From the NCBI GenBank assembly GCA_043804895.1, contig JAZDIN010000048.1, positions 1 through 14,494 of the forward strand: 14,494 nucleotides of DNA, in the 5' to 3' direction. The notes under the pieces are model-generated. The model was not told the DNA's origin. It searched no databases and was given only the letters and a program-made list of their open reading frames with translations. Below, in pieces: positions 1,159 through 14,494 of the stretch (position 1 is the stretch's first letter; each line of letters begins with the position of its first letter). The DNA comes from Candidatus Altiarchaeota archaeon (GTDB lineage: Archaea > Altiarchaeota > Altiarchaeia > IMC4 > SCGC-AAA252-I15). The translations under genes and the position numbers were made by a program.

Positions 1159-1312
1159 AGCCCCCGGGGGGATTTGAACCCCCGACCTACCGATTGCTTT
1201 GAACCTGAATTCTCCCGTTTTTCTTTCTTTGAACCCGAGGGCCTTTCTTTCTTCCTAAGAAAGAAAGGGGCTCTTACAAGTCGGTCGCTCCACCAGTCTG
1301 AGCTACGGAGGC
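1159..1312 (-). tRNA. tRNA-Thr(UGU) with 80-nt intron at 37/38
   Basis: Acceptor GCCTCCG/CGGGGGC, D stem GCTC/GAGC, anticodon stem ACCGA/TCGGT, anticodon TGT at 1278-1276, T arm GGGGG-TTCAAAT-CCCCC, discriminator U. 74 nt after intron removal. Confidence 0.97.
1195..1274 (-). other. tRNA-Thr intron (80 nt) carrying a family C hairpin element at 1221-1274
   Basis: Bulges UA|A and CA|A, central helix CUUG/AAAG (3 pairs plus G.A mismatch), closing helix GAGCC/GGUUC. First 54 nt match the tRNA-Leu intron at 52/54. Confidence 0.93.
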
Positions 1313-3275: not shown

Positions 3276-3333
3276 TCAGAGGGACTGAAGCGTCAGCGGA
3301 AGTCCCTCCTTCGTGAACCTTAGTAAGGTTCTA
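3276..3333. repeat. Family A double-hairpin repeat, copy 1 (abuts 3' end of tRNA-Pro)
   Basis: gagggact...agtccctc stem then gaacctt-agt-aaggttc stem; homologous to 4052-4161. Confidence 0.85.
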
Positions 3334-4051: not shown

Positions 4052-4161
4052 TCAGAGGGACTGAGCGAAGCGAACACAACCGACCTTTGGTCGGGTGTGT
4101 GTCCGAGACGAACGTCTCGGCCACATGTCCCTCCTTTCGCGAGCCTTTGATAAAGGCTCTG
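4052..4161. repeat. Family A double-hairpin repeat, copy 2 (abuts 3' end of tRNA-Ala), interrupted by a family B insert
   Basis: tcagagggactgagcgaagcgaa[B]gtccctcc...gagccttt-gat-aaaggctct. Compensatory change gaacc/ggttc to gagcc/ggctc relative to copy 1. Confidence 0.85.
4075..4126. mobile_element. Family B 52-bp double-hairpin insert, copy 1 (putative non-autonomous element)
   Basis: cacaaccgac-ctttg-gtcgggtgtgtgtccgagac-gaac-gtctcggccacat. Second copy at 12182-12234; the empty site is at 3301/3302. Confidence 0.75.
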
Positions 4162-4274
4162 TGGACTCGTCGGGATTCGAACCCGAGGCCCCCACCATTC
4201 TGTCGACTGCGGCCGCCAAACGGCTTGCCGCGCCGTTGCCAAGGTGGTGATCTACCGGACTGATCTACGAGCCC
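4162..4274 (-). tRNA. tRNA-Ala(GGC) with 39-nt intron at 37/38
   Basis: Acceptor GGGCTCG/CGAGTCC with G3.U70, D stem GATC/GATC, anticodon stem CCACC/GGTGG, anticodon GGC at 4240-4238, T arm TCGGG-TTCGAAT-CCCGA; 74 nt spliced. Confidence 0.97.
4198..4236 (-). other. tRNA-Ala intron (39 nt, GC-rich hairpin)
   Basis: ACGGCGCGGCAAGCCGTTTGGCGGCCGCAGTCGACAGAA. Central helix UUGG/ACAG with G.A mismatch; closing helix CGGC/GUCG. Confidence 0.92.
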
Positions 4275-4278
4275 TTTG

Positions 4279-4327
4279 TTCTTTCTTTCCGTGCACGCTT
4301 TCTTTCTTTTTAAGAAAGAAAGGGTGC
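4279..4327. repeat. Family C (CTTT/AAAG hairpin) repeat filling the tRNA-Ser/tRNA-Ala spacer
   Basis: ttctttcttt-ccgtgcacg-ctttctttctt-ttt-aagaaagaaagg-gtgc. Same arms as the Thr/Leu intron element; homologous to 12160-12260. Confidence 0.85.
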
Positions 4328-4429
4328 GCAGGGGTTGGGATTTGAACCCAAGGGGCCTTTTGGGCCACAGACTTTCTGTCGTTTGTGGTTAGCAGGCCTG
4401 CGCGTTGGACCGGACTCTGCCACCCCTGC
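4327..4429 (-). tRNA. tRNA-Ser(GCU) with 16-nt intron at 37/38
   Basis: Acceptor GCAGGGG/CCCCTGC, discriminator G, anticodon stem CAGGC/GTCTG, anticodon GCT at 4393-4391, long variable arm GGCC-CAAAA-GGCC, T arm TTGGG-TTCAAAT-CCCAA; 87 nt spliced. Confidence 0.96.
4374..4389 (-). other. tRNA-Ser intron (16 nt)
   Basis: ACCACAAACGACAGAA; central helix CUGC/ACAG (3 pairs plus C.A mismatch). Confidence 0.9.
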
Positions 4430-11897: not shown

Positions 11898-12159
11898 GTA
11901 GAACAGAAAGGGCGAAAACAGTTTCAGTAAAAGTTGGACTCCATACCAGTTGAATCCGCGGATGTTGACGCTGAACCTCAGAAGGGTGTAAAAACCAGGT
12001 TGACTAACACCAAGACCTCGTACGCCCTGAACCTAAAGCCTCTTAAGCTTATCCATGGCGTGAGTTTATTCAACATGGTAAGCCTTTGTTGGGGAAAAGT
12101 TGTTCAGACATAATGGACCGGCATCCCCTTATCAACCCTACCCTCCTCTCGTTGTAAAC

Positions 12160-12260
12160 TTTTTCTTTTTCGTGCACGTTTCACAACCGACGCTTCGCGT
12201 CGGGTGTGTGTCTGAGACAAAGTCTCAGCCACATTCTTTTTTCTAAAAAGAAAAAGGTGC
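12160..12260. repeat. Family C repeat 3' of tRNA-Leu, interrupted by a family B insert
   Basis: tttttcttttt-cgtgcacg-ttt[B]tcttttt-tct-aaaaagaaaaaggtgc; aligns with 4279-4327 once B is removed. Confidence 0.8.
12182..12234. mobile_element. Family B 53-bp double-hairpin insert, copy 2
   Basis: cacaaccgac-gcttcgc-gtcgggtgtgtgtctgagac-aaa-gtctcagccacat. Differs from copy 1 only at the two hairpin tips and one compensatory pair. Confidence 0.75.
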
Positions 12261-12262
12261 TT

Positions 12263-12431
12263 TGCGGGGGACGAGGTTTGAACTCGCGCAGTCCTTCGAC
12301 ATAGGGTCTCTCAAAACCTACTATTACGCCTCGGAATGTTCTTTCTTTGAACCCGAGGGCCTTTCTTTCTTACGAAGAAAGAAAGGGGCTCTCCTAAGCC
12401 CTACCCATTTGACCAGCTCTGGCACCCCCGC
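12263..12431 (-). tRNA. tRNA-Leu(UAG) with 85-nt intron at 37/38
   Basis: Acceptor GCGGGGG/CCCCCGC, discriminator A, anticodon stem TAGGG/CCCTA, anticodon TAG at 12396-12394, variable arm GTC-GAAG-GAC, T loop TTCAAAC; 84 nt spliced. Confidence 0.97.
12308..12392 (-). other. tRNA-Leu intron (85 nt) carrying a family C element at 12339-12392
   Basis: Full BHB: bulges GG|A and AG|A, helix CUUA/UGAG, closing helix GAGCC/GGUUU. Confidence 0.93.
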
Positions 12432-12713
12432 AAAAGGGAAATTAAGCCTCAAATGGCCGTCTAAGTATAATGAAGTCATGAAATAAATAGGAAACCACAA
12501 GTCGATTCAGGACAATATCACACTTAACCCGCACTTTTTTCGCATGTACCAAGGCACGCCCATTTGACAAGAAGCCGCAGACAGGCGTACAGGAAAATGG
12601 TCTCGATTTGCCCTTTTCAGGCAAATGTCATATATAAGGCATTCAGTTCATAAAAGCCGTCTATATACCTTATAGGGCTTCTAAAAGGCGTTTAATGGCT
12701 TTTGTGTTTTGGA

Positions 12714-12768
12714 AAGTATTATACACTGTGTGTAATACTCGCAAGTATTATACACTGTGTGTAATACT
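12714..12768. repeat. Two tandem identical 26-bp near-palindromes
   Basis: aagtattatacactgtgtgtaatact at 12714-12739 and 12743-12768, separated by cgc. Each has 12-bp arms with one mismatch. Confidence 0.92.
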
Positions 12769-12963
12769 TTACCCTCTGAAATGCCATACCTATTAAAACG
12801 CCTTAAAATAAAAGCTGTAAGCCCTATTTAGCGTTTCTGGATTATCTTCCCCGAATCTATACCCTGAAACCCCTTGAAATCAATCACAGGCCTAGGTTGC
12901 ACCAGCACAAACAAGCGGCTTACAAGAACAAAAGGTGCAATGATATCGCACATGTAGAGGGGG

Positions 12964-14494
12964 CTATTCTGTCTTTGGCTCGCTTATTATCATCTTCTGT
13001 CCGGCCCTGACGTATAGGACGTCTTTGTCTTTGAACCTGTTGAAGAACTTTTCCCCTTCTGATTCTATTTTAGGTATGGAAAGGCCTAGAATGAGTATGT
13101 CTGCGGCTGCTGATTGTTCAGCTATGAGTGCTTCTATGGTTGTTTCCTCTTCGTCATATCTGAGTTCCTGGATTATGTCTTTTGAGAGCGGTATATCTCC
13201 GGATTCTATTAGAGTGGTTAGTTTTTGCAGGTGGTCGTCCATGTGATTTGTGTGGAATGTGGCGAATATTTCAATTGTGGATCCCTTCCATTCTGGATGT
13301 TCATTCAGTATGTATGCTAGAGTAGCCATAAGTCTCGCATTGCGATAGTCCTCAGGGGTAAGCCAGACATGTATCTTTTTTCGATAGCCGAATCGTTTCT
13401 CAGAGGGTTGTAGTATGCAGATATTGAAACTCATCATTGCGGTTAGGCGACAGGCGTCTATAATGTTTTTGGTGCTGTCCTTGTCTTCGGCATCATATTC
13501 GATGAGAAGGCCATTGTTTTCCATCCCAGATATGCCTGGCATCTGTACGATCATCTCTACGGCAGACTTGAATGTGGGCGCTATGATGGTGTCGACATAT
13601 AGGGATGATTTGCTTGACTGTCCGATGTTCACTAAATCCTCCAAATCCTGTTTGGCTGTTCTCTTCGTATCCTGTAGGAGCTCCCCCTTGATGTAGTGGA
13701 TGTATGTCCCAAATCCGTAGTAGTGTGAGAACCATCTTAATAGGTCAAATAATGCAAGGCGCTTGAATGATGTTGATGAGAGGCTGATGAAGGAAGGCCT
13801 CCATCCAGTGAATGATACTTCCATTTGGTGGTGTTGTATCATTACGCGAAGTTTGCGGGTTAGCTGGAAGAATGCTCCTGAGACCATGTCTGAGAGGTCG
13901 TATTCGTTGGATCTGCTTTGCTTGATACTGACATATATGCCTCCTATAGCCAGCAGGGACAGTGATGCATAGAGGGGAGACATCTGAAACATCATGAAGA
14001 GACATATGAGGGCTCCTGATAAGGAGAGATACCATTTTGTCCTGAACGTTGGTTGGTAGGATAGGTTTCCTGCGAAATGCTGCAAAAAGCTAACAAGGCA
14101 TACGGCGCCGTATGTTATCATGAAGAACATGCTGATTATCTGCGCTACGAAATCGACGGTGCCTATGAATACGAAGAATAATGCTATTATAGCAGTCACA
14201 AATGTTGCATTTGACGGTTCATTCGCTTCCCCGATTCCCTTGCTCAAGTAGTGGTTCAGCGTCTTTGATGGAAAAATCCTATCCTTGGCTAATGCCTGCA
14301 TAGTGCGTGGCGCTATGAGGAGGGAGCCAATTGCGGAAGACAGTGTTGCGCACGCCAGACCGATGAGGATGAGCGGGCCCCACAATGCAATCTTGCCCAT
14401 GATTAGCTGGTCAGCTGCTAAATCCTCAGGTGACGCTGAAAGGGAAAGTTTTATCACAACAAGGAAGTATACAACCATTCCAACTAAGGTAGCG
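12964..14494 (-). CDS. APC-superfamily permease of the cation-chloride cotransporter (SLC12A-like) type, C-terminal part (5' end outside window)
   Basis: ATLSSAIGSLLIAPRTMQALAKD, AQIISMFFMITYG, SYQPTFR, GWRP, IVQMPGISGMENN, IHVW and a long cytoplasmic C-domain. Frame is open to the window edge. Confidence 0.9.
   Translation of the reverse strand, partial: ATLVGMVVYFLVVIKLSLSASPEDLAADQLIMGKIALWGPLILIGLACATLSSAIGSLLIAPRTMQALAKDRIFPSKTLNHYLSKGIGEANEPSNATFVTAIIALFFVFIGTVDFVAQIISMFFMITYGAVCLVSFLQHFAGNLSYQPTFRTKWYLSLSGALICLFMMFQMSPLYASLSLLAIGGIYVSIKQSRSNEYDLSDMVSGAFFQLTRKLRVMIQHHQMEVSFTGWRPSFISLSSTSFKRLALFDLLRWFSHYYGFGTYIHYIKGELLQDTKRTAKQDLEDLVNIGQSSKSSLYVDTIIAPTFKSAVEMIVQMPGISGMENNGLLIEYDAEDKDSTKNIIDACRLTAMMSFNICILQPSEKRFGYRKKIHVWLTPEDYRNARLMATLAYILNEHPEWKGSTIEIFATFHTNHMDDHLQKLTTLIESGDIPLSKDIIQELRYDEEETTIEALIAEQSAAADILILGLSIPKIESEGEKFFNRFKDKDVLYVRAGQKMIISEPKTE

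Follow-up and report, generated by a model that had tools for sequence, protein, structure and literature searches.

One may ask how a tRNA gene of an archaeon comes to hold an intron that the same gene lacks in related genomes, and what is carried along when such an intron appears. The question is raised by a stretch of 14,494 nt from a Candidatus Altiarchaeota archaeon (contig C48, JAZDIN010000048.1 of assembly GCA_043804895.1, hereafter the window), in which the genes for tRNA-Thr(UGU) and tRNA-Leu(UAG) are interrupted by introns that open with almost the same 54 nt. An earlier note, made from the sequence of the window, took this segment for a self-contained intron or intron-invading element of recent spread. 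The genome (G000) is a 1.58-Mb draft of 71 contigs, 88.7% complete, and was compared with relatives, of which G001, G002, G003 and G004 belong to the same genus, G010 to another genus and G023 to another family. Each of the two 54-nt segments is a copy of the same subtype, here called type A, in a family of tRNA-linked modules, and neither is a private intron. The explanation that we favour, with somewhat more confidence than doubt, is that this structure-constrained module has been copied or homogenised among sites which are discarded in tRNA processing, that the Thr(UGU) intron was copied from an intron of the Thr(GGU) type, and that the copies are near-identical by constraint. The locus is a rare concrete case of how archaeal tRNA introns are gained, with an intron-free orthologue in three genomes of the same genus and a plausible donor paralogue in the same genome. 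The 54-nt unit is defined and nearly invariant across genera while its surroundings drift, its presence behind tRNA genes ties the intron to trailer sequence, and mirror-order co-variation suggests a natural triple-helix-type fold.

The segment shared by two tRNA introns

Both segments lie on the minus strand, at 1221-1274 and 12339-12392, and agree at 52 of their 54 positions, as the earlier note had counted; in a blastn search against the whole genome the match has an E value of 1.6e-20. The two mismatches had also been placed correctly, inside the 3-nt loop of a 12-bp polypyrimidine/polypurine hairpin, where they are loop positions 1 and 3 (AGG vs CGU on the tRNA strand). In both genes the insert stands between positions 37 and 38 according to the tRNA model and ARAGORN, and the intron-free orthologues join exactly there. 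Because of the exon coordinates (Table 1), both shared segments open at the first intron base after 37, so that the claimed start at the 5′ splice site is right for Thr and for Leu alike. The remainders of the two introns (26 and 31 nt), said to have diverged, have indeed only a chance-level likeness, with 17 matches that were equalled by 159 of 500 shuffles.

In minimum-energy folds of anticodon stem plus intron, GAGCC of the module pairs, as had been proposed for both introns, with the 3′-terminal GGUUC (Thr) or GGUUU (Leu), and the hairpin and a second small helix branch inside (z -2.5 and -3.6). The 9-mer GGUUCAAAG, whose two Thr positions (1227-1235 and 1197-1205) had been given accurately, is found further at 12345-12353, and an unrelated occurrence lies at 13029-13037; the second Thr occurrence (1197-1205) is predicted to pair with GAGCC and the anticodon loop. 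That the match is an assembly artefact, or a chance likeness of low-complexity sequence, can practically be dismissed. The hairpin is of low complexity (TTTC/GAAA runs) and the genome is a draft in many contigs, yet the E value is extreme, each copy lies in a complete tRNA gene flanked by unique sequence and both are on the same contig, 54 nt is below the usual read length, and the independent assemblies G007 and G009 have the same subtype in Leu(UAG).

A module family at tRNA exon ends

The whole of G000 was scanned for the hairpin with its purine tail, and contexts were assigned by reading the flanks. The scan gave 19 modules, with a common order of parts: the 5′ strand of a closing helix, the polypyrimidine/polypurine hairpin, a linker with the return strand in it, and last a purine tail in mirror order to the purine strand of the hairpin. 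A tRNA piece adjoins 16 of the 19. Eight modules open at the 5′ splice site of a tRNA intron (Phe-GAA, Glu-UUC, Thr-GGU, Asn-GUU, Leu-UAG, Thr-UGU, Gln-UUG and, in degenerate form, Met-CAU), six stand behind a tRNA 3′ end or fill a tRNA-tRNA spacer, one follows a 20-nt tRNA 5′ fragment, and one, at a contig end, abuts a tRNA 3′ exon in antisense orientation, while three are located elsewhere, on C17, on C30 (~110 nt from a 5S rRNA gene) and on C32. Every module-bearing intron seen in this genome sits at 37/38. The Thr and Leu introns of the window have only their 5′ 54 nt in common; Thr(GGU) carries the same subtype, and the Phe, Glu, Asn, Gln and Met introns carry others. The module matches no Rfam family, either at the gathering cut-off or at E values up to 1, and around the other copies in G000 Rfam reports tRNA and 5S rRNA only.

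Searched through the genome and its relatives and tabulated by tRNA, type A (GAGCC, hairpin, 11-nt linker, tail) amounts to 20 copies in 8 genomes of the order. From the upstream sequence, 11 of these copies were assigned to the 5′ ends of introns, 7 to the region after a tRNA 3′ end and 1 to that after a 5′ fragment, and 1 was left without assignment; the anticodons of the intron-end hosts include GAA, UAG, CAU, CCA and UCG. The copies are thus found at splice junctions and tRNA ends, not scattered without preference. Since the module is also present after tRNA 3′ ends and in the spacers between tRNA genes, at places that need no splicing, the segment is no self-contained intron. What is supported of the earlier interpretation is the element that spreads among tRNA splice sites; self-containment, the suggested donor and the recency of the spread are not.

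Constraint on the fold and the mirror tail

Among the 20 type-A copies the linker is identical in 17 and GAGCC in 16, and the loops differ in most. The three AAGCC copies are the very ones with a single linker change, C to U, which would be compensatory if GAG pairs with CUC of the linker. An alignment of 35 modules (MAFFT) left the closing helix out of register. A permutation test took its place, with pairing sought between the 7 nt that precede the hairpin and the first part of the linker. Of 110 diverse copies, 68 have a closing helix of 4 bp or more, whereas 1000 permutations of the linkers among copies gave 37.7 on average and 50 at most, and these 110 copies hold 58 different closing-helix sequences.

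The tail was compared with the hairpin by the order of A-runs, the purine strand of the hairpin being read 3′ to 5′ and the tail 5′ to 3′; a longest-common-substring test of mirror and direct order had mostly ended in ties. The first A-run of the tail equals the last A-run of the purine strand in 207 of 272 copies (shuffled tails: mean 82, maximum 106), and by group in 12/19 modules of G000, 53/64 of its relatives, 95/133 of other archaea and 47/56 of bacteria. The 107 copies with asymmetric runs comprise 86 in mirror order, none in direct order and 21 in neither, and among 59 two-run cases 36 are mirror. Twelve linker classes each have several run-length states, in which the tail tracks the hairpin. 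A switch, in which the tail would be a second pairing partner of the pyrimidine strand, was considered and rejected: direct order is seen in 63 of 272 copies, vs 207 for mirror order. Mirror order points to a third strand lying on the purine strand and not to an alternative Watson-Crick partner. The fold would thus be three-stranded, with triples of the purine motif if the sense strand forms it, and with U.A-U and C+.G-C triples if the antisense strand or the DNA does. The second connector of such a fold is 11 nt long in type A and 6-18 nt or more elsewhere.

Constraint of this kind could also act on the DNA. It may be supposed that the module is an intrastrand triplex (H-DNA) repeat like the bacterial motifs PIT, BoxC and TMECO, recombination-prone or polymerase-stalling, and linked to tRNA genes where it is tolerated or arises; this we consider unlikely. 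The block order of TMECO is the same (pyrimidine stem, loop, purine stem, loop, mirror purine stem; PMC4666352). The same architecture is found in Selenomonadaceae and other bacteria with a tRNA signal upstream in 0 of 56 copies, tRNA-fragment duplications flank modules as would be expected of recombination hot spots, and antisense copies exist. Yet orientation overwhelmingly follows the tRNA, and duplex H-DNA has no need of a closing helix that co-varies or of optional hairpin inserts, both of which belong to a single-stranded fold. Moreover, in vivo footprinting is reported to have given no support for a stable TMECO triplex (Holder et al., PMC4666352).

Source and age of the two introns

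Intron-free tRNA-Thr(UGU) genes exist in G001, G005 and G006, whose sequences were inspected, and, judged by abutting exon matches, in G002, G004 and at least 10 further relatives (40 relatives were searched with the Thr gene). A gene next to the locus is kept in G001 and G006. In G014 and G023 the Thr(UGU) introns belong to other subtypes and end differently on the 3′ side. The 26-nt remainder of the G000 Thr(UGU) intron agrees at 21 of 26 positions with that of Thr(GGU) on contig C4, and 0 of 500 shuffles were as good, while the exons of the two genes are alike at just 53 of 74 positions. The two Thr introns of G000 are homologous over their full length, except for a 55-nt double-hairpin insert. 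At the same site Thr(GGU) has an intron in G003, G006, G007, G009, G023 and G026, with a similar 3′ end (that of G026 being otherwise unrelated), and none in G010; the interior is a 30-nt simple hairpin in G006 and another subtype in G007, G009 and G023. In G003 (locus L187, C39:7968-8110) the type-A linker, tail and remainder are kept and the hairpin is missing, which looks like a deletion across it, since a 4-nt direct repeat GCCC flanks the hairpin in G000. The most economical reading of these sequences is that Thr(GGU) would hold an old intron with turnover of its interior, of which Thr(UGU) of G000 gained a copy. As for Leu(UAG), no intron is present in G001 (inspected) nor, by abutting matches, in G003, G010, G011, G023 and G028; type A is present in G007 and G009, and another subtype in G002 and G005.

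Because of the 21/26 agreement of the remainders, it is Thr(GGU), and not a tRNA with a UUN anticodon, that is the likely source. The earlier note had pointed to a self-contained mobile intron from a Lys/Glu/Gln (UUN) tRNA, the AAAG of which would pair with C32-U33-U34-U35, as the recent invader of Thr and Leu. Such an origin now appears very improbable, even though GAGCC pairs with the GGUUC of the 54-mer itself when that segment is folded in isolation, and Gln(UUG) and Glu(UUC) of G000 carry members of the family. The 3′ splice sites of these Gln and Glu genes lie far past the tail, and AAAG is part of the mirror purine tail in all contexts, with trailer copies obeying the mirror-tail rule as well. 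Furthermore, Phe(GAA), Asn(GUU) and Thr(GGU) host module introns yet have no U34.

Recency fares no better. A copy of the module in another genus is 57/57 identical, whereas coding DNA beside the orthologous Thr locus of G001, within the genus, is 68% identical over 824 nt, and because of this module identity is no clock. Judged from these alignments, the near-identity is a matter of constraint on the module and not of recency.

Distribution beyond the genome

The module part alone was matched in many of the 40 relatives, with 57/57 identity in G010 and 89-95% in G003, G007, G017, G019 and G023. Presence and absence of the module vary among close relatives, which speaks of its insertion or loss, and some long introns bear a sense module at one end and an antisense module at the other. 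An exact-pattern scan of one genome per species, in which the taxonomic spread is that of a sample, gave at least 112 stretches. The archaeal matches listed are from Altiarchaeota, Iainarchaeum, Micrarchaeota, Woese-, Pace-, Nano- and Aenigmatarchaeota, ANME-1 and Methanobacteriota, often beside tRNA pieces; the bacterial matches listed are from Selenomonadaceae, Clostridia, Oscillospiraceae and Spirochaetota. A viral carrier was dropped as a candidate: one viral contig matched the general pattern in an AT-rich low-complexity stretch and was not counted. In the bacterial loci (L059-L161) the module is multi-copy and intergenic and keeps its hairpin, closing helix and mirror tail; a G/C-rich hairpin often comes after it, and the tail of asymmetric bacterial copies is in mirror order in 14 of 14. 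Contexts outside G000 were called automatically, with nhmmer, a 44-tRNA profile and a T-arm motif. Since this classifier caught just 8 of the 19 modules of G000, vs 16 by reading, its counts of at least 24/64 tRNA contexts in relatives and at least 36/135 in other archaea are lower bounds.

The trailer copies invite a further explanation, in which the module is an RNA cassette of benefit to the host near exon ends, serving 3′-end formation, termination, ordered precursor processing or the protection or direction of nucleases, with intron copies as captured trailers. We regard it as possible, although clearly less probable than the favoured one. Outside the loop its sequence is conserved like tRNA exons across genera, the site right behind Leu(UAG) is filled by some subtype in 5 of 7 orthologues inspected, and modules are also found between other small repeats that resemble RNAs (C32) and after a tRNA-Ile end that is duplicated. 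Runs of at least 5 T residues occur in 14 of 31 copies behind tRNA 3′ ends and 4 of 26 copies at intron 5′ ends (Fisher p 0.022, for copies that are not independent), a bias to be expected if trailer copies acted as terminators and termination were avoided within introns. On the other side, presence is patchy, Thr(UGU) has no trailer module, orthologous genes manage without the intron copy, and one subtype takes the place of another between orthologues, as is usual with turnover and not with a fixed function. We know of no processing factor that recognises such a fold.

From intron to trailer: splicing capacity and a possible route

Drawn by hand in the canonical register, the Leu junction has a 4-bp central helix (C-G, U-A, U.G, A-U) and two 3-nt bulges. 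The splicing endonuclease of G000 is represented by one PF01974 match, in a 183-aa open reading frame (ORF; EndA, C1:19139-19399). Homologues of 170 aa have PF02778 and PF01974, i.e., the N-terminal and catalytic domains, and the closest homologues, with 84-86% identity, carry the name Candidatus Altiarchaeota. By its length the G000 enzyme presumably resembles the homotetramer type. ARAGORN reports introns in 16 of the 25 tRNA genes found in G000. The tRNA-Leu(GAG) gene (C25:114100-114219) has an apparent insert of ~36 nt in the D-loop region, and because of it non-canonical inserts exist in G000, despite the one short EndA gene found.

According to the favoured explanation, the module would begin at the first intron bases and GAGCC, by pairing near the intron 3′ end, would give the intron-side helix of a bulge-helix-bulge (BHB) motif, so that a single EndA-type endonuclease could cut out the whole insert at 37/38. 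The module would multiply, or be homogenised, wherever tRNA processing throws it away, which includes intron 5′ ends, 3′ trailers and tRNA-tRNA spacers, and purifying selection or concerted evolution, probably acting on the three-stranded fold, would keep its copies near-identical. The Thr(UGU) intron would be a lineage-specific gain, probably copied from an intron of the Thr(GGU) type, and the Leu(UAG) intron with the same subtype would be older. New introns may arise when a module-bearing intron or trailer sequence is copied into an anticodon loop. A broader proposal, which is tentative, is that a hitherto undescribed class of three-stranded elements is conserved in Altiarchaeota, DPANN, some archaea related to methanogens and certain bacteria, and that in archaea it marks tRNA exon ends and seeds new BHB introns; an intron would then be born when a trailer-type module, already holding one strand of the splice helix, enters an anticodon loop.

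Several observations weigh against the explanation favoured here. The transfer was confined to the intron: exon-guided gene conversion should have converted the anticodon stem too, and the stem is unconverted. No mobility enzyme is in hand, because neither a Y1 transposase (PF01797) nor a reverse transcriptase (RVT_1) has a match in the 88.7%-complete assembly. The 4-bp central helix drawn by hand for Thr is 3 bp plus a G.A mismatch, and the computed folds keep the GAGCC helix but with the register off by two bases, and show no textbook BHB. In 42 of the 110 diverse copies no closing helix of 4 bp or more was detected, and the mirror rule is broken in 65 of 272 copies, in 21 of the 107 asymmetric cases, and in the two-run cases by 9 direct and 14 neither. 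The copies are also kin, and their counts overstate independent events. To our knowledge, an A-rich purine-on-purine RNA triple helix is no established stable RNA structure.

As regards homing-type enzymes and insertion scars, LAGLIDADG_1 has no match in G000, and LAGLIDADG_3 has one, a 512-aa ORF on C11 that lies 30 kb from the nearest tRNA found. The four ORFs scanned, 1-3.1 kb upstream of the intron-bearing Met gene, have no LAGLIDADG domain. Comparison of the filled Thr(UGU) site of G000 with the empty sites of G001, G005 and G006 showed no duplication beyond a 1-nt ambiguity.

Relation to known systems

The module is best filed as a case that joins a shared-intron family with an intrastrand-triplex-type repeat, both of them known kinds. 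For the former, the earlier note had turned to Thermoproteales, whereas the lineage here is Altiarchaeota; a "large-scale intron transposition" among tRNA genes of Thermoproteales was reportedly described in 2010 by Fujishima and colleagues. In Thermoproteales, related introns in different tRNAs were read as the result of transposition at the DNA level, by an unknown mechanism (PMC4090602; bioRxiv 10.64898/2026.10.13.758758). Like these families, the present case has near-identical intron sequence in tRNAs of different identity in one genome, a gain that is inferred from intron-free relatives, and the BHB requirement at the junctions. Unlike them, it belongs to Altiarchaeota, the introns seen are all at 37/38, and nothing but the 5′ part of the intron is shared, a unit which also occurs behind tRNA 3′ ends and in spacers, is conserved across genera and phyla and obeys a mirror-repeat (triplex-type) constraint.

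The bacterial intrastrand triplex motifs PIT, BoxC and TMECO are multi-copy and intergenic (Holder et al., 2015, PMC4666352) and, like the module, carry on one strand a pyrimidine block and the complementary purine block with a loop between them, followed past a second loop by a mirror purine block. TMECO, as presented there, is G/C-rich with second loops of 3 nt, whereas the module is A/U-rich, has a second loop of 6-18 nt or more and a co-varying closing helix; the archaeal modules are moreover tied to tRNA exon ends, and the word tRNA is absent from the main text of PMC4666352. Of the ITxF definition, the pyrimidine stem, the complementary purine stem and the mirror third block are present in the module, and loops of 1-6 nt on both sides are not; because of its long second loop the ITxF settings would miss it.

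[quoted passage not shown] It differs from REP, REPIN and MITE in that no Y1 (RAYT/IS200-type) transposase was found in G000, no target-site duplication is seen at Thr(UGU), and it has a tie to tRNA ends and a fixed orientation. In a MITE census, the highest archaeal density was that of Candidatus Altiarchaeum hamiconexum (PMC11602168). Introns are related to the leaders and trailers of split tRNAs (Randau, 2005; Fujishima, 2009; summary in PMC4090602), and similarly the same kind of sequence is found here after a 5′ tRNA half, after a whole tRNA and within an intron, with tRNA fragments adjoining modules. Unlike split tRNAs in that account, however, the fragments here directly precede complete genes, and trans-splicing is without support (matching 3′ halves were not sought). 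In searches of the literature on archaeal tRNA introns and triplexes no tRNA-linked hairpin-plus-mirror-tail module was found, although the supplementary sequences of PMC11602168 might include it.

Features of the window and neighbouring elements

The coordinates of the two loci and of the other modules and module-related elements of the window are collected in Table 1.

Table 1. Positions of the two tRNA loci, their module copies and related elements in the window.
Feature	Position	Strand	Basis or remarks
tRNA-Thr(UGU) gene	1159..1312	-	exons 1275-1312 and 1159-1194; Rfam tRNA 50.4 bits; ARAGORN with introns
tRNA-Thr(UGU) intron, 80 nt, canonical site 37/38	1195..1274	-	Rfam tRNA model and ARAGORN; orthologues in G001, G005, G006 without intron
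Type-A module, copy 1	1221..1274	-	in Thr(UGU) intron; first intron base 1274
Copy 1, GAGCC (closing-helix 5′ strand)	1269-1273		
Copy 1, pyrimidine strand	1257-1268		
Copy 1, loop	1254-1256		
Copy 1, purine strand	1242-1253		
Copy 1, linker	1231-1241		
Copy 1, mirror purine tail	1221-1230		
Thr(UGU) intron remainder	1195..1220	-	homologous to Thr(GGU) intron remainder (G000 C4); holds second GGUUCAAAG, 1197-1205
tRNA-Leu(UAG) gene	12263..12431	-	exons 12393-12431 and 12263-12307; ARAGORN with introns
tRNA-Leu(UAG) intron, 85 nt, canonical site	12308..12392	-	ARAGORN; G001 without intron
Type-A module, copy 2	12339..12392	-	in Leu(UAG) intron; 52/54 to copy 1
Copy 2, GAGCC	12387-12391		
Copy 2, pyrimidine strand	12375-12386		
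Copy 2, loop	12372-12374		
Copy 2, purine strand	12360-12371		
Copy 2, linker	12349-12359		
Copy 2, tail	12339-12348		
Module of another subtype, directly behind tRNA-Leu(UAG) 3′ end	12160..12260	-	hairpin part 12234-12260; closing strand and tail 12160-12177; split by 54-nt double-hairpin insert, 12180-12233
Module in tRNA-Ser (4327-4429) / tRNA-Ala (4162-4274) spacer	4279..4327	-	
Double-hairpin element, second copy in the window, behind tRNA-Ala	4075..4125	-	

The double-hairpin element (~54 nt) recurs, besides its two sites in the window (both minus strand), in the Thr(GGU) intron on C4, at C33:5170-5225 and at L186 (G001 C7). Within modules it sits at the junction of purine strand and linker, where the purine strand is cut short and the tail still fits the full pyrimidine strand; behind tRNA-Ala it stands alone. 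The copy of G001 has a compensatory change in hairpin 1. Different two-hairpin inserts are found in other genomes, in the loop (G009) or at the linker/tail junction (G007, G010).

Pieces of tRNA are repeated in two arrangements. At C33:5054-5140, and likewise behind tRNA-Val on C47 and on C15, the last 16-17 nt of the tRNA are repeated ~70 nt past its 3′ end and preceded by complementary sequence, as in a T-arm/acceptor-like minihelix; on C33 a type-A module comes next. At C33:23450-23654 a tRNA 5′ fragment of 20-33 nt is followed by a module and then by a complete tRNA gene with the same 5′ end, an order that recurs in three other genera (L013 in G010, L034 in G019, L038 in G017).

A small homologous hairpin (GARCC, a U/A loop of 6-9 nt, GGYUC, RCG, AAGG) is found behind five tRNA genes, at 3308-3331 and 4133-4159 of the window and behind Met-CAU (C24), Gly-GCC (C25) and Phe-GAA (C2). 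It may be a miniature relative of the module, with its short purine tract in direct, not mirror, order. At 12713-12770 of the window, two identical 26-nt copies, 29 nt apart from start to start, are mutually complementary and form a perfect double palindrome, the sole database echo of which is a sub-threshold Rfam match (28 bits vs a cut-off of 86). Finally, a motif, GGGUAGGGUUGAUAAGGGG, lies shortly downstream of modules behind tRNA-Leu, at 12125-12143 of the window, at C25:~114400 and at L022, L040, L097 and L154.

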